The notes under the pieces were generated by a model, which made no database searches, was not told where the DNA came from, and saw nothing but the letters and a program-made list of their open reading frames with translations. From Candidatus Heimdallarchaeota archaeon (lineage in GTDB: Archaea > Asgardarchaeota > Heimdallarchaeia > Heimdallarchaeales > Heimdallarchaeaceae): 12,286 bases of DNA. The position numbers and the translations under genes are program-made. Positions 3,265-11,775 of the stretch are shown in pieces. Within the stretch, counting starts at the first letter, position 1; each line of letters starts with the position of its first letter. The stretch is from assembly GCA_021399395.1 (NCBI GenBank), contig JAAFKJ010000064.1, forward strand, positions 1-12,286. The letters run 5' to 3'.

Positions 3265-4275
3265 TCATCTAACTACTCTAGTTAATTTTGCTCCACATCT
3301 AGGACATGAATAACTGCCTACAGGTATTTCTTCACCACATGTAGTACAGTTCTTGATTTTTCTTTCTCTTTGACCTTCTTGTCTTGATAATGGTTTCAAA
3401 ATAAAACCTTCTTTTGTTATGTCCCACGTATAAAGTAAAGTTCCTTGAAGCTCCTCCAGAGCTTTTTCAGGTATAGTTATCCTATTCTGATTATCTAAGA
3501 CTAAAAATCTTGAACTATCTAAGTCAGTTAGATCAATACCTTCAAGATGTTCTCCTATTAGAATTCCATCCCGAATTTCTAATGTCCGGTCTGAGAATTC
3601 TCCAACTATAGGATCATGAGAACAAAGCAAGTAGGAGGTACCAGTCTCTTCTTTAAGTTCTTTGAATAAATCAAGAATTTGAGTGGAAGTTTCAGTATCT
3701 ACATTCCCAGTTGGTTCGTCAGCAAAAATCAGACTTGGATTGTTTGCAAGAGCTCGCGCTATCGCAACACGTTGTTGTTCCCCACCAGAGATTCGTTTAG
3801 GTGTGTGATCTCTTCTGTGCCAAATACCTAAGGTCTCCATTAGCTCTTTTACTTTCTGTTTTCTCTTAGCAAATGGAGTGCTAATAAGTTTCATTGGCAT
3901 CTCAATATTTTTCTCAGCAGATAGGTAAGGAATAAGATTTTGTTCTTGAAAGATGTAGCCTATATTATGTCTCCTAAAATCGAATTGATCTTCTTCTGGA
4001 AGTTTAGTTATATCAGTTCCATCAGTATAGAATATTTGACCTGCAGTTGGTTTAAGCATACCACCTAAAGCTAAAAGGAGTGTACTTTTTCCCGACCCTG
4101 AAGGACCAATTATTCCAAGAATCTCTCCTTTTTTGATATCAAAACTTACTCCTTTGAGTGCAACAACTTTGTTCTGATGTTCCAATCCATATACATGGTA
4201 AATATCCACTGCTTGTAACGCAAGATCTTCGGGTAGAGGTTCAATCTGGACTTTTCGTTTCATATCTCCATACAT
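3265..4275 (-). CDS. ABC transporter ATP-binding protein (LolD/MacB/FtsE-like) with C-terminal AbrB/MazE-like domain and zinc ribbon
   Basis: Walker [11 protein letters not shown]-loop YIFQEQNL, signature ISGGEQQR, Walker B/D-loop [12 protein letters not shown] and H-loop CSHD. The tail contains [19 protein letters not shown] and CTTC-x10-CPRC. The track's GTG 4284 lies inside a GAGGTGA SD (4281-4287), so ATG 4275 is the more likely start (4278 and 4263 are alternatives). Confidence 0.93.
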
Positions 4276-4285
4276 CATAATCACC

Positions 4286-7105
4286 TCAGAATGTTCGCAT
4301 CTCCTCTACAACATTAGTTCTTGAAGCAATAATTGCAGGAACTAAGGTAGACATCAATATTATCACAAAAGAACCTAATACCGTCGCGAGTAGTATAAAT
4401 GGTGGATAAACTATTTGTCTGTTAAAAGATGTAATGCTGAAATTATCAAAGAATCCATTGAATTGATACCCTAAAATGAACCCTATAAATGTTCCAAACA
4501 AAGTTGCTAAAATTGCCATTGAAATCACTTCCGTGAGGACAAGTTTTATCAACTGTTTCTGCGAAGCCCCCTCAGAAATCAATATAGCAAATTCCTTCTT
4601 TCTTTGATTGATGATCATAAACATAAATAGAGATACACCGATAATTATTGCAAGAAGGGAAATAAGGAAATTGATGGTTAATAAACCTGGAAAACCAAAT
4701 CTTCGACCTTCTTGATCTTTGATTAATTCAATTTCTTCTTCATGGGTTTGTGCATATACAATCCACTCAAATTCAGAATTGAATTGTGACGAAAGATTCT
4801 CTTCGACTGGATCTACTTCAGGTTTGAAATTGATTATTGCTTTTGTTACTTCAAATGTAAACGGTGCATATGCAAAAATAAAATCTTGATCTACAAGCAT
4901 TGTGTAAAAGATATCTGTTTCAATAAAATCAAATATTCCTCCCATTGCCCCAAAAGAATAATCCATAATTTCACAGGGTGCATGGTCAATTGTTAGTGTT
5001 GCTTGAGCTTCATATTGTGATCCATCATAAGTAGTAAAATTAAATGTTGAATCATCCCCAATTTCTAAATATCTTGAAGTATCTACACCCACACCTACAT
5101 TTACTAAAGGATTATCCTTAAGCGTCTGCAATCCTTCATTCCAATCAGTATATTCAACAATAGAATCTGTGTGCCATAAAGCCTGATTTCCATATGTTGT
5201 TAAATTCGTTCCAAAACAAATTACAGGTGTTGCCCCTATATATAAAACGGTCATATAGATCGGGATTACTACTTCTATTTTATCTTCATAACCAACAAAA
5301 TCTGAAATAGAAAGATCATTCGAACCTGCAAGAATATCTACACGCATGTCACCACCAATATAGAAATCAGCATGTCTTACAATTTCAGCTGAACCCGTTT
5401 CTCCCTGTATTGCTCCAAAGACACATAATGAAACTGATAAGCAAAGTAGTACAGTCATTCGTGGAAAATTTTGGTGCCTTCTGGATAAACTACCTTTCAA
5501 CAGCACCCCTATATCTTTGAAGATTTTCACCAATAATTTATCTAATCTTACAGGTATTTTTGTTGATAATCTACTCACTATTTTAGCTGCTCCAAACCAT
5601 AGAAGAATTGGCGTAAATGCTTGTAACAATTCTACTGTGAATCCAAAAGCTACATTAGGATCAATGTCCTCAACAATTGTGAAAGCAACTCCTACTAAAC
5701 CAATTACGAAGAAGATTACGTCACCATAGATTTTCTTAAACCAGCTTACTTTTTCCTTTTCAACAGTTGTTGCCAAAGCAACTTCTTGCTGGATAAAAGC
5801 ATTAGTTTTCTTTCTTGTTGCCATAAAGAGAATAAACAACGTTACAACTGCCGTAGTAATAACACTCCAAGCTTCAATATTGAGCGCTGAGTAAGCAAAA
5901 GATAGCGTCGAGAAATCTATGGCCATAAAACTATAAGTAGAAAGCACTGTAGCTGCTCCAAAAGTGCCAAGAAATATACCTATAGCTTCTCCTACTATAG
6001 CTATCAAAAATACTTCCAGATAGATCATCATCCGGATTTGCTTGGGACTCGCACCTTGAGCTTTCAATACGGAAATTTCAAATTTTCTTTCTCGTATTGC
6101 AAGTTCCGCGCCTAGATTGATAAGAATCATGGATAAAACAATCGCAGGAATATAGAGAACTGCATCTATAATCTGCATGATAATAATTAAACCTTGATAA
6201 GCAAAAAGAACTCCCGATATTAGATTTCTCCCTTCTAAAGGAATTTTTTGTTCCATTCTTTTCAAGACAATCGTGATATATTCGTTGAATTTGATAAGAT
6301 TACTCAGGGGGAATTTAGTTAAATCTAGTTTCGTAGGAAGATGGTACATATTAAAAGCAGTAAGATTCCCAATTATAGTAGAATTGAAGCTGTCACTTCC
6401 AATAACCATATGTTGCTCATCTAAAAGTAATCCAGGATTAAAGAATCCTCTCACTGTTAAATTCATTGAATGAGTAATGACACCCACATCATCATAGGAA
6501 ATCCCATTAAACACTGTTTTGTTGAGGAAGAATGTAAATTGTAAAGTGTCATTTATCTGGATTCCAAGATTTTTATACTGATTTGATGATAATAGAATTC
6601 CATTATCATCTAAGTTATTTTCTCCAGCGATGATGTTGATTCTTTCGATTATAGAATTGTTTTCAAACTCAGAATCGACAATCATTGGATCATATAGGGG
6701 TCGTCCTAAATCCCACCCTATCTGTGTTGAGAAATTGAAATCTGGTAATAAGTACGAATAATACATGTTCCAGTAATCGTTTTTATCATAATGAGCATGA
6801 CGACCATAAACAACCACGCTGTCTTGAAATTCTTCTTCCTGCAAGATTAGATCTACTACTTCAGCTGGTGTATATCCAATATCTGTATCAGTAGGACGGA
6901 AGGTGACTTCAGCTTCAACATTATCGATCATATCCTGAACTGTAATTGAATTAATAATGGATCCATAGAAGAAGATACTAGAAAAAATTGCTGCACCAAG
7001 TATCATTCCTGCACCAATCGAAATACTTCGTCTTTTATTGGATATCATTGACCTAAAAGCAAAACCAATAAAAGAGAAAAATTTAGGGCGTTTAAGACGT
7101 TTCAT
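4286..7105 (-). CDS. FtsX-like/MacB-family ABC permease with two tandem FtsX repeats
   Basis: 939 aa. N-terminal AFRSMISNKRRS followed by a TM helix, two large extracytoplasmic domains and two FtsX signature segments (ERKFEISVLKAQGASPKQI and QRKKEFAILISEGASQKQL). It ends PAIIASRTNVVEEMR. It has an ATGA overlap with the upstream ATPase and a GGAGGT SD at 7112-7117. Confidence 0.93.
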   Translation of the reverse strand: MKRLKRPKFFSFIGFAFRSMISNKRRSISIGAGMILGAAIFSSIFFYGSIINSITVQDMIDNVEAEVTFRPTDTDIGYTPAEVVDLILQEEEFQDSVVVYGRHAHYDKNDYWNMYYSYLLPDFNFSTQIGWDLGRPLYDPMIVDSEFENNSIIERINIIAGENNLDDNGILLSSNQYKNLGIQINDTLQFTFFLNKTVFNGISYDDVGVITHSMNLTVRGFFNPGLLLDEQHMVIGSDSFNSTIIGNLTAFNMYHLPTKLDLTKFPLSNLIKFNEYITIVLKRMEQKIPLEGRNLISGVLFAYQGLIIIMQIIDAVLYIPAIVLSMILINLGAELAIRERKFEISVLKAQGASPKQIRMMIYLEVFLIAIVGEAIGIFLGTFGAATVLSTYSFMAIDFSTLSFAYSALNIEAWSVITTAVVTLFILFMATRKKTNAFIQQEVALATTVEKEKVSWFKKIYGDVIFFVIGLVGVAFTIVEDIDPNVAFGFTVELLQAFTPILLWFGAAKIVSRLSTKIPVRLDKLLVKIFKDIGVLLKGSLSRRHQNFPRMTVLLCLSVSLCVFGAIQGETGSAEIVRHADFYIGGDMRVDILAGSNDLSISDFVGYEDKIEVVIPIYMTVLYIGATPVICFGTNLTTYGNQALWHTDSIVEYTDWNEGLQTLKDNPLVNVGVGVDTSRYLEIGDDSTFNFTTYDGSQYEAQATLTIDHAPCEIMDYSFGAMGGIFDFIETDIFYTMLVDQDFIFAYAPFTFEVTKAIINFKPEVDPVEENLSSQFNSEFEWIVYAQTHEEEIELIKDQEGRRFGFPGLLTINFLISLLAIIIGVSLFMFMIINQRKKEFAILISEGASQKQLIKLVLTEVISMAILATLFGTFIGFILGYQFNGFFDNFSITSFNRQIVYPPFILLATVLGSFVIILMSTLVPAIIASRTNVVEEMRTF

Positions 7106-7848
7106 TTCTTAACCTCCTTCTTACCTTCATATTTAGAATCAAGAATCTTAGTTTGTTCCTTTAACACTTTCCCTTTTTGAAGAATGTATAATCTATCAGT
7201 CTCTCTTGCACTTAATGTATCATGAGTGACCATGATAATGGTTATTTTCTGTTCTTTAGCTAAATTCTTGAAAAGTGCAATTATATCCTTACCAGTGTGA
7301 GTATCTAGATTACCAGTAGGTTCATCAGCGTAGATGATATCAGGCTCATGGGCTAAAGCACGAGCAATAGCTACACGCTGCTGCTCCCCCCCACTTAATT
7401 CTTCAGGTAAGTGGTCTATACGAGCAAAAAGACCTACGATTTCAAGAAAATCTATAGCTTTACTTTCAGCTTCAGTCTCGATCACTCCCCTCAATTTCAT
7501 AGGAAGCTTAACATTCTCCTTAGCTGTTAAATATGGAATAAGAGCAAAGTTCTGAAAAACAACGGAAGACTTAGTTCGCCTTATTTGAAGCCTATCTTTA
7601 TAACTAGTATTATGTAGGTTAACTCCAGCAATTTTGACCTCTCCTTCAGTAATAGTCTCTAATGTTGCTAATATGTTTAGCAGAGTTGATTTACCGCTTC
7701 CAGAGGGCCCCATAACACCTATGAACTCACCTTTCTTAATTTTCAAGTCTACTCCAGTTAATACATGTACTAACTCTCCTCCTGGTAGTTGAAAATCTTT
7801 TATAAGACTTGTAGAATCAATCGCAACTTTACTTGATCTCTTAGCCAT
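7102..7848 (-). CDS. ABC transporter ATP-binding protein (LolD/MacB/FtsE-like)
   Basis: [44 protein letters not shown] and VTHD; 248 aa. Confidence 0.96.
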   Translation of the reverse strand: MAKRSSKVAIDSTSLIKDFQLPGGELVHVLTGVDLKIKKGEFIGVMGPSGSGKSTLLNILATLETITEGEVKIAGVNLHNTSYKDRLQIRRTKSSVVFQNFALIPYLTAKENVKLPMKLRGVIETEAESKAIDFLEIVGLFARIDHLPEELSGGEQQRVAIARALAHEPDIIYADEPTGNLDTHTGKDIIALFKNLAKEQKITIIMVTHDTLSARETDRLYILQKGKVLKEQTKILDSKYEGKKEVKK

Positions 7849-7889: not shown

Positions 7890-7905
7890 AAAAAGAAAAG
7901 TAAAA
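7890..7905 (-). terminator. Oligo-T terminator downstream of the CorA-like gene
   Basis: Minus-strand TTTTACTTTTCTTTTT starts about 10 nt after TAG 7915. Confidence 0.5.
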
Positions 7906-7914
7906 GGTAGAATT

Positions 7915-9660
7915 CTAACTATTCAGAACTCCACTTGATCGCATGTCACCTAGAATTTGTTCAATCATTTTTTGCTGGTCTGTATTGACTTCACTAGTCT
8001 CTATTTCGATGCTTAATAATAGAGCATTTGTTTCATTGTAGGTTATGCTTACGTGATCTACATCCAAATCTTTCAATTCTGGATCGTCGCCTATATCCCA
8101 TACATAGCTTACTATGATATTGTCTCTATCATATTCAACATGCTTTGTCAATATTTCCTTTTCAGCCATATAGCTGCTTAGTTTATCTACATTTATGGTT
8201 CGATTTAAGGTCATATTGATTGTGAAATCTTTGAGAGCTTTTCTTTCCATCATATTTTTACTCCACCGCAGATAAATTACAATTCCTATCCAACAAACAA
8301 GACTAATGATAAACATTACCAGAGTCCCGTATTTAGACATTAAGCCGCCAAAAACAGTATCAGATGATCCGTATTCACCTACAGCAAAAGCAAAGACTTC
8401 TAGAATAATACTTCCAGCCAAAATCAATTCAATCATGTCGATAGCTCCACCAGTTCTAGTATTTGCTTGAAGAACTTGATTCATACTTTTAGTATTCCTG
8501 GTCATTGCTTTGTTCATGTTTCTCATTTGCATTTCAGAGAGTGTAGAAATGTAGTTTCTTATTCCCTCTAGTTCAGTTAATAGACCATTAATGATTTTGT
8601 CTGCTTCTTTTACTCGCTCTCTTGAGATATTAAGACCTTCTTCAACATCGTAGAAATCATTTAGATCAGCAATGTTATTATCTCTGTAAATTTGTAACAA
8701 ATCAGAAGTTGAATCCTTAAGAAACTCTTGTATTTGGCTGACTAAACTTATGGTACTTGTAAGTAAGGTTATTTGCTCTTGAACACTGTTCAATGCTTCA
8801 GTATTTCCTTTAACTGCTTCTTCTACTAGGTTTTTTATGTTGTTAGATTGGTCATAAAGCTCCCAGATTCTAGACATGAAACAGTCAACAAATGTTCCAA
8901 TAGCATGTTGGATTCCCCAGAAAGTTATCTGGTATTCGTTCTCTTCAGTGAAGTTGTCAATAACTGCAAGTGTTCCTCTTGTACCCTTAAAGAAGATATT
9001 TGATCCTGCTTGGTAAGGATGATGTCCTTCTCCAACTAATTGGTTTATCTCTATTTCGCAATCCTCACCATCACAATACTCTTGTACATCATCATGTTTA
9101 ATATTGATATCCTCACCAACATAGCAAATTGTTTTTGGTCTGTGCATCGGATTTCCGAATATAATCTCTAGAAAGTTTCTTTGAAACTCAGTAAGAAGAC
9201 TATCAATTACCAATGAACTATCTTGCGATAAATCAGCGACCACTCGAGAAAGCTTATCAAGCGACATATAGCTGTTTTGTCCTTCTATCTCACGTAAATT
9301 TAATGAGTATATAACAAAGCCAGTTTTTGAGATGAAAATAGCCATTTCTTCAATCTGAACAATTCCCTCTTCTTCTGGTAAATCTATTACTGCTTCAAGA
9401 TTAACATAACTATCTAATGCATAATCATTTACTAAGACTCTGGTATGTTTTCCCTTGGATGTAAAGATAGGTACATCAGGTGACCGGTCTATCAACCCAG
9501 TAAGAAGAGTCTTATGAGCTCCTTTTTCAATGTCTAGCTTCTTATTCAATTCTCTGAGCTGGTTAGAATCAAAAGGTAACCATTCTACAACAAAAATCTT
9601 CGGATGTTTGATATAGAGAATTTCATCGAGTTCGTCTTTAATGTTATGTGCTATTGTCAT
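7915..9660 (-). CDS. Uncharacterised membrane protein with CorA-like architecture (alpha/beta N-domain, long helical stalk, two TM helices, extra C-terminal soluble domain)
   Basis: 581-aa ORF with a GGTGA SD 9 nt upstream. It has a beta-rich N-region (IEEMAIFISKTGFVIYSL) and long amphipathic helices running into TM1 (IDMIELILAGSIILEVFAFAVG), then a short loop and TM2 (TLVMFIISLVCWIGIVIYL). No GMN motif. The CDS is secure; the family assignment is inference. Confidence 0.6.
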   Translation of the reverse strand: MTIAHNIKDELDEILYIKHPKIFVVEWLPFDSNQLRELNKKLDIEKGAHKTLLTGLIDRSPDVPIFTSKGKHTRVLVNDYALDSYVNLEAVIDLPEEEGIVQIEEMAIFISKTGFVIYSLNLREIEGQNSYMSLDKLSRVVADLSQDSSLVIDSLLTEFQRNFLEIIFGNPMHRPKTICYVGEDINIKHDDVQEYCDGEDCEIEINQLVGEGHHPYQAGSNIFFKGTRGTLAVIDNFTEENEYQITFWGIQHAIGTFVDCFMSRIWELYDQSNNIKNLVEEAVKGNTEALNSVQEQITLLTSTISLVSQIQEFLKDSTSDLLQIYRDNNIADLNDFYDVEEGLNISRERVKEADKIINGLLTELEGIRNYISTLSEMQMRNMNKAMTRNTKSMNQVLQANTRTGGAIDMIELILAGSIILEVFAFAVGEYGSSDTVFGGLMSKYGTLVMFIISLVCWIGIVIYLRWSKNMMERKALKDFTINMTLNRTINVDKLSSYMAEKEILTKHVEYDRDNIIVSYVWDIGDDPELKDLDVDHVSITYNETNALLLSIEIETSEVNTDQQKMIEQILGDMRSSGVLNS

Positions 9661-9661
9661 T

Positions 9662-10288
9662 TTATTTCTTCACCAGCTTGTCTGCAATCCTTAGGAAATA
9701 AGGTTTAGAGATGTAGCTTACATCTTCACTTTCTAAGAAATCTAATTCAAAATCCGAAACGTCACATTCAGGACAATCAATCTTAATTTCTGGTTCATCG
9801 CCCATATTCATAAAGAAATCTAAGTGGGTTTTACAGTGTTCACAGTAAAATAACTTATGCACTTCATCTTGAACGTCCTGAGGAATGATATTCAAGTACT
9901 TAAAGCCAAGATCTGTAATTCTATAAGCTGTTACAAAACCATGTTGAGAGGTGCTCAATCGAATTTTTTCTAATATGTCTAATTCTCTAAGATCTTCTAT
10001 ATCATCAATCCCTTCATATGAGAGATTAACAGTAAAACTACTGCGTCCAAAAAATTGTATAGAAGTAGGTGCATAATCATATGATTCGTAGGTTCCTTTT
10101 ACTATCTGATAATACATCACAGCCCACAAAGGGAGTTCTTTTACCCAGACTTTTTCATTACTTGTTTCTAAATAATGATCGCCCTTTACCCATTTTGTGA
10201 GATAGTTCATAGTATATAGCAAGGTTTGCTGATCTCTCGTTAATCTTGATATATCTAAGTTATCCCCCGTTGATGGTTCCAATGTCAT
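9662..10288 (-). CDS. Uncharacterised winged-helix protein with C-terminal zinc ribbon
   Basis: 208 aa. It shows a helix-wing pattern SYEGIDDIEDLRELDILEKIRL...AYRITDLGFKYL, a YDYAP motif, CEHC...CPEC and a C-terminal EDVSYISKPY. The stop lies 1 nt before the next ATG. Confidence 0.7.
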   Translation of the reverse strand: MTLEPSTGDNLDISRLTRDQQTLLYTMNYLTKWVKGDHYLETSNEKVWVKELPLWAVMYYQIVKGTYESYDYAPTSIQFFGRSSFTVNLSYEGIDDIEDLRELDILEKIRLSTSQHGFVTAYRITDLGFKYLNIIPQDVQDEVHKLFYCEHCKTHLDFFMNMGDEPEIKIDCPECDVSDFELDFLESEDVSYISKPYFLRIADKLVKK

Positions 10289-10298
10289 ACTTTAGGAG

Positions 10299-10322
10299 AA
10301 ATAATTCAGATTATTTTAATCT
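10299..10322 (-). promoter_or_regulatory. TATA-like box (10312-10319) overlapped by two short palindromes
   Basis: Minus-strand TTAAAATA ends 23 nt upstream of ATG 10288. The palindromes are AAATAAT-N4-ATTATTT (10299-10316) and AGATTA-N3-TAATCT (10308-10322). Confidence 0.4.
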
Positions 10323-10376: not shown

Positions 10377-11003
10377 CTACCTTTGCTTTTCTAGTTCTTT
10401 GTCTCTCTTGGCAATTCTTTCAATTAGATCTTTGAAGCCTTTAGGTTCTTGTTCTTCCTCAAATGTAAAAACAACTGGACGACGTTTTCTTTCTACATCA
10501 AGTGCTCGTGCAATTTTACCTGCTTCATACTTTTCCTTAACTTGAGATTTTTTACCTATCCAAACATAGATCTCATCATATGCATCTAATACGAACGAAT
10601 CATTAGATTTCAGATTTTTGTGTTTGATGGCAACTTCCTTAGTTGTAATTGTCCCATCATTTTGTTGAATTATCTGTAGAAGTTTATAATCAATATCTAA
10701 CTTTAATTCAAAATGTTTTAAGAAACCAGGAGTATCTCCTTCAACTACTACAAAATCAAGCAGCTCTTTGAACTCTTCAGGTTCATCTCCTTCCATAACA
10801 GTTTTGATAAGAAGGTCTTTATTCTCTTCTTCTACTACCTTAGCAGTCCAAGCACCAACAGCACGATCATCACAATAGGATTTTCCCCCTAACCATATCC
10901 AGAGGTGTGTAGTTGTGGTCACTAAATATACATCTCCATTTAGAAATTTATATGGCTCTTTTACGGGTTTTAGTCTTTTTCTTACTACATGATAGACATT
11001 CAT
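10377..11003 (-). CDS. Two-domain gelsolin (Asgard 2DGel-like actin regulator)
   Basis: Two gelsolin repeats: FLNGDVYLV...LWIWLGGKS...EGDEPEEF and LKSNDSFVLDAYDEIYVWIGKKSQVKEK...EEEQEPKGF. They are joined by GDTPGFLKHF, equivalent to the GFKHV linker of eukaryotic gelsolin. Confidence 0.92.
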   Translation of the reverse strand: MNVYHVVRKRLKPVKEPYKFLNGDVYLVTTTTHLWIWLGGKSYCDDRAVGAWTAKVVEEENKDLLIKTVMEGDEPEEFKELLDFVVVEGDTPGFLKHFELKLDIDYKLLQIIQQNDGTITTKEVAIKHKNLKSNDSFVLDAYDEIYVWIGKKSQVKEKYEAGKIARALDVERKRRPVVFTFEEEQEPKGFKDLIERIAKRDKELEKQR

Positions 11004-11115: not shown

Positions 11116-11775
11116 ATGAGTAATGAAGAATCAATTTTTGATGAGGAAGTAGATGAACCTCTTTGGAAGCAAATTACTGAGAAAATTAAACCTTATCTTA
11201 CTCAAGAAGACATTATAAACATGGATTTAGATAGTTTTGGAGCTTTAGTTAAAAGATTACATGGTATTAATGAGCTTACAGAACATGAAATGTCTTATGC
11301 TAAGAAGAATAGAGATTTGATTCTTATACGAATGGGATTATTACATAACATCCCTGATTTAAGTGAAGACGATTTAGAAGTTGGATTAAAACAAATTGCT
11401 GTAAGGTTAGCTACTTACTATTTCAGTAACAATGTTGCTAATTCTCTTGAGGAAGCGCAAACTAAAGTTCTTGAAGTTATGAGAGAAGGATTTTCTTCAA
11501 GTGTTACTGTTAGTCTAAATCCTGAAGAAGAAATCATCACATTAAGAGAAAAATTGTCAATTATTTCCAAAGTGAATCTAGAGAATGCGAAGGATATTGC
11601 TGCATTGCTTACAAAAACAAAAGATAAATTGATGAATATAGGTATATCAGGATCAGTATTTTATGAAATAGATAAGTTCTGTCAAATGCTCAAAAGGCAG
11701 AGAGAAGAAGATCTACCTACAAAGAATGATATTGTCGAAGCATCTTTTGAATGGCAAATGAAAATCCAAAAGTGA
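11116..11775 (+). CDS. Hypothetical all-helical protein; possible distant Vps28 (ESCRT-I)-like protein
   Basis: 219-aa acidic helical ORF with an upstream TATA-like box. The C-terminal ~85 aa show a four-helix pattern (IITLREKL...NAKDIAALL...VFYEIDKFCQMLKR...DIVEASFEW). The CDS is secure; the Vps28 resemblance is by eye only. Confidence 0.5.
   Translation: MSNEESIFDEEVDEPLWKQITEKIKPYLTQEDIINMDLDSFGALVKRLHGINELTEHEMSYAKKNRDLILIRMGLLHNIPDLSEDDLEVGLKQIAVRLATYYFSNNVANSLEEAQTKVLEVMREGFSSSVTVSLNPEEEIITLREKLSIISKVNLENAKDIAALLTKTKDKLMNIGISGSVFYEIDKFCQMLKRQREEDLPTKNDIVEASFEWQMKIQK

Follow-up and report, generated by a model that had tools for sequence, protein, structure and literature searches.

The described proteins with which the system treated here can best be compared are CorA, ZntB, Mrs2 and CmaX (PF01544, 2-TM-GxN). 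Membrane effectors of the CorA type that are associated with type III systems of clustered regularly interspaced short palindromic repeats (CRISPR) exist, and they act in defence. In addition, two families are already catalogued in Pfam 38.1, but no published function was found for them; the names given in ESM Atlas are MJ1566_N for PF27230 and MJ1567 for PF27231. The present analysis concerns a 12,286-nucleotide stretch of the contig JAAFKJ010000064.1 of a Candidatus Heimdallarchaeota archaeon (hereafter, the window), in which two neighbouring genes on the minus strand encode one member of each of these families, that is, an acidic protein of 208 amino acids (aa) and a membrane protein of 581 aa. 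We refer to them as the small protein and the large protein. We propose that the pair forms an obligate two-subunit, CorA-shaped membrane complex which conducts cations under cytoplasmic control, and we put the probability of this whole statement at about 0.5. The parts of the statement differ in strength: it is very probable that the two proteins constitute an obligate complex, and the chance that the complex conducts cations is a little short of even.

The assignment of the window proteins to the two families came from precomputed labels. When the large protein was used for a search, 32 proteins were obtained, nearly all of them from Heimdallarchaeaceae or from metagenome-assembled genomes (MAGs) of Heimdallarchaeota, and 31 carried the label PF27230.1; two (980 and 989 aa) were labelled with both PF27231 and PF27230. 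The search with the small protein gave 20 proteins, all labelled PF27231.1. The expectation values (E) ranged from 0 to 1e-28 for the homologues of the large protein and from 1e-127 to 1e-43 for those of the small protein. Because these values are strong, both genes are real. In the representative library the family amounted to 887 representative clusters at E<=1e-3. Scans of both proteins against NCBIfam and against a copy of Pfam that did not contain PF27230 and PF27231 gave only noise below the threshold (PhaP, MCPsignal, SHQ1-like and SigH). MJ1566 and MJ1567 presumably lie side by side in Methanocaldococcus jannaschii, judging from their gene numbers only. In the literature we found no paper that names MJ1566 or MJ1567, and the main texts of two papers, bioRxiv 10.64898/2026.10.28.762692 and PMC12962969, contain no mention of CorA, magnesium, Mrs2 or MJ1566; their supplementary tables might list the family. 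A first-pass annotation, which was made from the DNA letters alone, had supposed that the system might be undescribed. This does not hold for the families as such, which had both entered Pfam, and it does hold in the sense that no paper naming them came to light.

The two genes are closely linked in the window and show signals of translational coupling; the G+C content of the window is about 34%. Read on the minus strand, the stop codon TAA of the small gene (9664-9662) is followed by a single A at 9661 and then by the ATG of the large gene (9660-9658), which ends with TAG at 7917-7915. The GGTGA motif that may serve the large gene as a Shine-Dalgarno sequence lies inside the small gene (Table 1). 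Between the TATA-like TTAAAATA and the first ATG, no Shine-Dalgarno-like motif was seen in the minus-strand reading. This fits a leaderless or near-leaderless archaeal transcript, and the transcript of the pair is probably leaderless. As read from the sequence, the promoter and terminator roles of the TATA-like box and of the T-rich tract are putative. The spacing of one nucleotide, the GGTGA motif inside the upstream gene and the layout of a TATA-like box and an oligo-T stretch around the pair had all been described in the first-pass annotation, and our reading of the letters agrees with it.

The order of the two genes was conserved in other genomes. Among the loci found by tblastn, in which genome loci were located with the family alignment, the small gene was immediately upstream of the large gene in 18 of 18. 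Twenty further loci from other Asgard families brought the number to 38, that is, 35 distinct loci when 3 duplicates were removed. In a hidden Markov model search, 34 of these 35 loci had the small gene next to the large one, upstream of it and on the same strand, and in the single miss (L023) the large gene is cut by the contig end. The same arrangement was present in all three further archaeal metagenome contigs. A clustering of the neighbouring genes of 11 lineages left the pair as the only genes common to all 11, and the next most frequent gene, an ATP-binding cassette (ABC) ATPase, occurred in 4. Apart from the pair itself, no neighbourhood is conserved, as expected of the discrete bicistronic unit that had been supposed from the window.

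Some loci had features of their own. In L039 (75-1444), a single large gene is preceded by two tandem small genes of the MJ1567 type. In Candidatus Heimdallarchaeum endolithica (L013, CP084167.1, 6001-7746), one in-frame TAG splits the large gene into open reading frames (ORFs) of 101 and 476 aa, and the database protein P0026 begins after this break. A pseudogene, recoding or an error in the sequencing might account for the break. The contig DATKZI010000026.1 (L017) is labelled Candidatus Bathyarchaeia at NCBI, and the identical contig G289:C26 was assigned to the class of the Heimdall genome of the window.

In many protists the two proteins are joined in one polypeptide. Residues 16-198 of the small protein align to residues 165-342 of the fused 980-aa protein P0031 (29% identity, E 2e-13), and the large protein aligns, with all of its domains, to the remainder. 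With the fused protein as query, 223 matches were obtained. Almost all of the 120 matches listed have both families, and every organism named among them is a stramenopile (Tribonema, Lagenidium, Thalassiosira, Ectocarpus, Pylaiella, Scytosiphon and Discosporangium); transcripts of EukProt and MMETSP are also present. A ubiquitin-like domain lies between the two modules in 10 of these 120 matches (PF00240/PF11976 in five, PF27687 in five). ESM Atlas likewise contains eukaryotic clusters (Oomycota, Chlorophyta) in which a protein of 855-944 aa combines the two families, in some clusters together with ANKRD40_UBL or SprT-like domains, as well as one archaeal cluster (Thermoplasmatota) and one unlabelled bacterial cluster. 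Of 293 near-full-length members of the family that were compared, 182 are fused and 111 are split. An N-terminal extension longer than 120 aa was seen in none of the 111 split members, and the linker between the modules of the fused forms has a median length of 17 aa. The first-pass annotation had suggested that motifs similar to DYAP, EDVSY-S-PY and ILAGS...GE[WY] occur together in single large protist proteins. Both points proved correct: these are the most conserved motifs of the family, and the proteins of Tribonema, Lagenidium, Thalassiosira, Ectocarpus and others, together with the Oomycota and Chlorophyta clusters, are of this kind. The split archaeal forms and the fused protist forms thus make a clean Rosetta-stone case.

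One apparent bacterial case, L020 (3911-6249, in a MAG labelled Verrucomicrobiaceae), was rejected. There one ORF holds the small module together with the beginning of the large module, and the remainder follows after a gap of 27 nucleotides and a change of frame; the gene is interrupted as by an intron or a frameshift, and the contig has few long ORFs. From its sequence it looks like an intron-bearing eukaryotic gene that was binned into a bacterial MAG. The automatic JGI name "WD repeat-containing protein 35" is attached to many split and fused members (P0030, P0058, P0061, P0209 and others), and neither the sequences nor the models of the members gave support to this name.

A model of the heterodimer pointed to the place at which the two proteins may touch. 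The score of the model was 0.62, which is the median of three runs (0.64, 0.62 and 0.00), and the best of three controls gave 0.00; 58 of 80 solved complexes attained this mark, as did 2 of 110 mismatched pairs. The contact agreement among the runs was at least 0%, and the predicted local distance difference test value (pLDDT) of the partner was at least 66. In the predicted interface, the small protein takes part with its last 19 residues only (190-208), and these face the large protein at residues 78-125 (strands of the N-terminal domain) and at 132-144, 239-250 and 320-330 (helices), segments that contain the invariant residues Q102, E104, R139 and D143. The motif EDVSYxSxPYF in this tail is kept in the fused forms, and the tail has pLDDT values below 50 when the small protein is modelled alone. 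In the fused forms the tail stands a median of 17 residues before the N-terminal domain, and this spacing fits the predicted contact. The complex model, which passed its controls, supports the view that the invariant tail clamps onto the cytoplasmic N-terminal domain of the large protein, and it likewise speaks for the interface that had been expected between the two proteins. The predicted clamp is directly testable by point mutations.

The model of the large protein (pLDDT 75.4) has an alpha/beta part at residues 1-235, helices at 239-283, 287-328, 339-431 and 445-475 and a second alpha/beta part at 479-575. When it was compared with PDB by Foldseek, the top matches were all CorA, Mrs2 or ZntB (E 1e-5, probability 1.00). 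With VIA-align, the Z value was 14.5 for CorA (8zak_A; root-mean-square deviation 2.1 A over 133 residues), 13.5 for ZntB and 13.1 for MjCorA. A scan of 48,161 chains that was independent of Foldseek placed CorA at rank 1 (Z 14.1), MjCorA at rank 2, CmaX at rank 3 and Mrs2 at ranks 5, 6 and 8. Altogether the CorA matches had deviations of 2.1 A over 128-133 residues at Z 14.1-14.5. From these model comparisons it is probable that the large protein has a CorA-like fold.

The small protein was modelled (pLDDT 72.6) as a generic winged helix, with hairpins at residues 157-171. In a fold scan of residues 16-146, the winged helix of ORC/Cdc6 reached Z 10.0 over 100 residues, and TubR, MukF, RosR and MarR reached Z 8-9; by Foldseek, the replication terminator protein RTP and PadR were matched with probability 0.99 (E about 0.02). 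No Pfam family of the helix-turn-helix (HTH) type matched the small protein at E<=1. The zinc ribbon consists of two CxxC knuckles (C149-x2-C152 and C172-x2-C175), and the matches to Pfam Zn_ribbon_8 (E 0.0012) and TIGR02605 (E 0.009) were both below the cut-off. At the level of fold and motif, then, the protein is of the winged-helix and zinc-ribbon kind that had been read from the letters. The likeness to YwgA and Panacea (DUF4065) that had been added to this reading was not borne out: no such family appeared at E<=1 in Pfam or at all in NCBIfam, and the fold is that of a generic winged helix. Panacea (DUF4065) is a YwgA-like antitoxin domain.

These features raise the question of whether the small protein could be a transcription factor that is sequestered at the membrane and released on a signal. 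The winged-helix fold, with MarR, PadR and ORC among the top matches, and the presence of a zinc ribbon would suit such a factor. However, the protein is acidic (isoelectric point 4.62, net charge -16), as are the 35 split homologues with a median isoelectric point of 4.96, and its putative recognition helix, helix 3, carries the conserved acidic residues D95, D96, E98, D99 and E102. The ribbon is dispensable in the fused forms: each of its Cys residues is kept in 88-100% of the 35 split proteins as against 8-14% of 70 fused ones. Furthermore, in eukaryotes the short linker ties the module covalently to the membrane protein, and for this reason the module could not be released there without proteolysis. 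We regard this explanation as scarcely credible.

Taking the pair as a two-subunit complex, we propose the following arrangement. The large subunit would consist, from N to C terminus, of a cytoplasmic alpha/beta domain, a long stalk that runs into transmembrane helix 1 (TM1), a short outer loop, TM2 and a cytoplasmic C-terminal domain. The small subunit, with its acidic winged helix and zinc ribbon, would not act as a DNA-binding regulator and, according to the complex model, would be held permanently on the N-terminal domain of the large subunit by the EDVSYxSxPYF tail. The complex might oligomerize as CorA does, and cations might be conducted along a path lined by TM1, in which glycines and acidic residues are conserved. 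The cytoplasmic assembly, of which the winged-helix subunit is a part, might then sense a ligand or a partner and gate this path.

Several results weigh against this proposal, and we collect them here. One of the three runs of the complex model scored 0.00, and the agreement of the contacts across the runs was 0%. In the model of the large protein, the pLDDT fell below 50 at residues 399-408, just ahead of TM1. The TM-scores of its Foldseek matches were low (0.16-0.34). The margin of the CorA match is small, since plain helical bundles reached Z 12-13.8, near the CorA rows (12-12.7 in the scan of 48,161 chains). At the sequence level, no CorA match was found in Pfam at E<=1, and the profile compared with PDB sequences gave nothing relevant, the best match being a coiled coil (E 0.038). 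When the profile was compared by hhalign with 15 aligned Heimdall CorA proteins, the probability was 18% (E 1.3e-3), which is too weak for a claim of homology; this weak alignment pairs D153, Q160 and R161 with E92, Q99 and R100 of CorA (the "ED...QR" helix), in the same register as the structural alignments. The earlier description of the protein as CorA-like can accordingly be kept at the level of fold, where CorA, Mrs2, ZntB and CmaX held the top ranks in two independent fold searches, and not at the level of sequence.

The membrane part also departs from CorA. The window protein lacks the GMN tripeptide, as had been noted from its sequence, and TM1 ends with G428-E-Y, for which the consensus in the alignment of 108 sequences is G-E-[WY]; GMN occurs in 3 of these 108 sequences, at unrelated positions. 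TM1 is unusually charged, and the fused forms have a D-R pair at 424-425, so that it possibly differs from a classical pore helix. When the conservation table was inspected by hand, a single polar stripe was not seen on TM1, and the polar positions were on two faces. The polar invariance of the N-terminal domain could equally reflect ligand binding or catalysis apart from ion conduction. Of 31 genomes of the family of the window, 25, including the genome of the window itself, have genes with an MgtE domain, and the pair is therefore not required for the uptake of Mg2+ in this family. Finally, the distribution in Asgard archaea is patchy (41 of 301 genomes, 20 of 70 genera, 8 of 22 genomes in the genus of the window and 11 of 90 high-quality genomes), which does not suggest a universal need. 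With a different query, the family was found in 48 of 400 Asgard genomes and 21 of 85 genera.

Some of these points would be explained if the complex were anchored in the membrane without being a channel. On this explanation, the CorA-like scaffold would serve as a receptor, a tether or a platform for an enzyme, the N-terminal domain would bind a ligand or catalyze a reaction, and the TM helices would be anchors only. The charge of TM1, the absence of GMN and the extra C-terminal domain agree with it, and in the 108 sequences the strongest conservation was found in the cytoplasmic N-terminal domain and not in the membrane part. That is, the invariant residues of the N-terminal domain are E26, P29, N33, D58, Q102, E104, G114, D135, R139, D143, D147, Q160, R174, K176, E204 and Q207, and E26, N33, D58, Q102, E104, D135, R139, D143, D147, Q160, R174, K176, E204 and Q207 were each kept in 87-99%. 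The ubiquitin-like insertions in eukaryotes and the SprT-like domains in ESM Atlas also hint at roles in protein handling. Part of the invariance of the N-terminal domain is explained, however, by the predicted docking surface for the invariant tail, and no enzyme family of Pfam or NCBIfam matched either protein. Conserved glycines and acidic residues are, moreover, unusual in a mere anchor: G416 is present in about 90% and G428 in about 84% of the sequences, and acidic residues recur at 408, 411, 421 and 429, and in the fused forms also at 424. We consider a non-channel role a real possibility, though on balance not the probable one.

If the complex is a channel, it would add to the CorA-shaped proteins a family that has another selectivity motif and a winged-helix subunit of its own, and it would be a new candidate for membrane transport in protists.

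The first-pass annotation had also offered a toxin-antitoxin or abortive-infection module as an explanation. By analogy with the CRISPR-associated CorA effectors, the membrane protein would be a lethal pore and the small protein its inhibitor. The pair is a self-contained cassette of two genes with varying neighbours, the supposed effector is CorA-shaped, and the patchiness extends even into one genus, with 8 of 22 genomes; all of these would be in keeping with such a module. Against it, neither protein matched PADLOC-DB 2.0 at E<=1, and a scan of 20 genes that flank the pair in 11 loci brought up no CRISPR, restriction, integrase or toxin-antitoxin genes. These flanking genes are a mixture of metabolic and housekeeping genes (for example, major facilitator superfamily transporter, TldD, FEN1, glycerate kinase, radical S-adenosylmethionine enzymes and subtilase), and one lineage keeps the pair beside SecY, uS5 and EF-1alpha. 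The pair is present in a single copy in the genome of the window, and its permanent, conserved fusion in many protists would be difficult to understand for a toxin with its antidote. The suggestion of such a module is not upheld by these results, and we judge it very improbable; a role in defence and a role as DNA-binding regulator are both unlikely.

We return to the proposed complex and to its descent. Two unrooted trees were made, one with FastTree from 108 rows and the other with the quick mode of IQ-TREE from 69 rows, for which 8 long-branch rows were left out and the fused rows were thinned. Both trees contain one clade with every Asgard locus and the window, which consists of 24-25 split rows and the fused protein P0145, and another clade with the fused forms of the eukaryote type. 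The branch between the two clades had support values of 99 and 98. The position of the fused P0145 within the archaeal-type clade implies that the fusion probably arose more than once. The eukaryote-type clade also holds split pairs on archaeal metagenome contigs with 49-60% G+C, the neighbours of which include EF-1alpha, Cbf5, SecY and uS5, and nothing in the 400 Asgard genomes exceeds 37% identity to the large protein of these contigs. The contigs L066-L068 are of archaeal lineage.

In neither tree were the protist proteins placed inside the Heimdall clade. Because the trees are unrooted and the eukaryote-type clade includes archaeal split pairs, they do not establish a Heimdall copy as the ancestor of the protist form. 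The idea of an archaeal-eukaryotic system thus stands insofar as the family is present in both, and the line of descent from Asgard archaea to eukaryotes is not borne out by the trees. By itself, the pair has no bearing on eukaryogenesis. A bolder statement would be that the family is an ancient class of regulated cation channel, archaeal and eukaryotic and apart from CorA/Mrs2, with a winged-helix gatekeeper clamped by its tail, and that eukaryotes took it from archaea and joined its subunits; we think this rather unlikely. If it were true, many protists (stramenopiles and green algae) would have an unrecognised membrane channel, and the split form of Asgard archaea would be of use for structural work. 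In any case, the MJ1566/MJ1567 family is a large one that spans archaea and many protists, and we found no published function for it.

We also considered whether the MJ1566/MJ1567 family replaces canonical CorA (PF01544). Canonical CorA was found in none of 10 genomes of the family of the window, two single-contig genomes among them, and in 29 of 31 genomes in other families of the class. The MJ1566/MJ1567 family was present in 12 of 28 genomes of the family of the window; in the family f6 it was present in 5 of 11, and CorA in 12 of 12. We rejected the replacement, since the two occur independently and MgtE is present in the 25 of 31 genomes given above. The occurrence of the MJ1566/MJ1567 family is likewise independent of MgtE.

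The positions of the features of the pair are collected in Table 1.

Table 1. Features of the gene pair and their positions in the window.
Feature	Position	Strand	Basis
MJ1567-family gene (208 aa, acidic, isoelectric point 4.62)	9662..10288	-	ORF list; all 20 homologues labelled PF27231
Winged-helix domain (residues 16-146), conserved W48, DYAP 71-74, N88-x-S90-x-E92 and L100	9851..10243	-	model, fold matches, conservation
Cys4 zinc-ribbon region (residues 147-185; C149, C152, C172, C175)	9734..9850	-	Cys conservation; Zn_ribbon_8 E 0.0012
C-terminal tail (residues 186-208), invariant E188-D-V-S-Y192-x-S-x-P196-Y-F; predicted docking element	9665..9733	-	conservation and complex model
GGTGA, Shine-Dalgarno-like motif for the large gene, within the small gene, 9 nucleotides ahead of ATG	9670..9674	-	sequence reading
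MJ1566-family gene, membrane protein with probable CorA fold (581 aa)	7915..9660	-	ORF list; 100%-identical P0001 labelled PF27230; model pLDDT 75.4
Cytoplasmic N-terminal alpha/beta domain (residues 1-238)	8947..9660	-	alignment, model, conservation; most family-invariant residues
Long helical bundle and stalk (residues 239-400)	8461..8946	-	model secondary structure; aligned to soluble domains of CorA/ZntB/Mrs2
TM1 (residues 407-430), conserved G416, G428 and acidic residues; ends G-E-Y	8371..8442	-	Kyte-Doolittle peak 409-427; conservation
TM2 (residues 446-466), then basic stretch RWSKNMMERKALK	8263..8325	-	Kyte-Doolittle peak 446-464; sequence
Extra C-terminal alpha/beta domain (residues 479-575), without CorA counterpart	7936..8226	-	model; aligned in archaeal and fused forms
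TATA-like box TTAAAATA, 23 nucleotides 5' of first ATG	10312..10319	-	sequence reading
T-rich tract T4/T4/T5, 3' of large-gene stop; possible archaeal terminator	about 7890..7906	-	sequence reading

The other genes of the window were also inspected. Directly upstream of the pair is a gelsolin gene (10377-11003, minus strand) for a two-domain protein of 208 aa (Pfam Gelsolin, E 5.4e-20), an Asgard actin regulator of the eukaryote-like kind; in the minus-strand reading, runs of T8 and T7 follow its end. Divergent from this gene, an ORF at 11116-11775 on the plus strand encodes an acidic 219-aa protein without a family match, which is conserved together with the gelsolin gene in the 9 closest loci. 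Downstream of the pair, 3265-7848 on the minus strand resembles an ABC-transporter operon, with an ATPase of 248 aa, a permease-like membrane protein of 939 aa and an ATPase of 339 aa that has a terminal CxxC...CxxC tail; it has a TATA-like TTTATTTATA of its own, about 30 nucleotides 5' of the first ATG. The gelsolin, 219-aa and ABC neighbours recur only in the loci of 9 close relatives. The partial ORF 1-699 on the plus strand has two hydrophobic helices, matches an HTH of the DeoR type weakly (E 0.004) and carries a zinc ribbon at its C terminus (Zn_Ribbon_1, E 5e-6), and it is a second, unrelated membrane protein of the window that joins an HTH to a zinc ribbon.

In comparison with known systems, the pair agrees with Pfam PF27230 and PF27231 in its labels and in the adjacency or fusion of the two proteins, and these families are catalogued without function. 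The small protein resembles the winged helices of MarR/PadR/RTP and of ORC/Cdc6/MukF in the fold of residues 16-146; it differs from them in its acidic helix 3, in DYAP and N-x-S-x-E, in the Cys4 ribbon and in the predicted docking tail. The CorA effectors associated with type III CRISPR are similar in that a CorA-shaped membrane protein has a cytoplasmic partner, whereas the window pair has no CRISPR or defence genes nearby and no PADLOC match, and it is fused in eukaryotes. With CorA, ZntB, Mrs2 and CmaX, the large protein probably shares the alpha/beta N-terminal domain, the helical bundle, the stalk helix that runs into TM1, the short loop, TM2 and the basic residues that follow. In contrast to them, the window family has no significant sequence or profile match, has G-E-[YW] in place of GMN and a charged TM1, and adds both a C-terminal domain of about 100 aa and a winged helix, which is present either as an obligate partner or as an N-terminal fusion.

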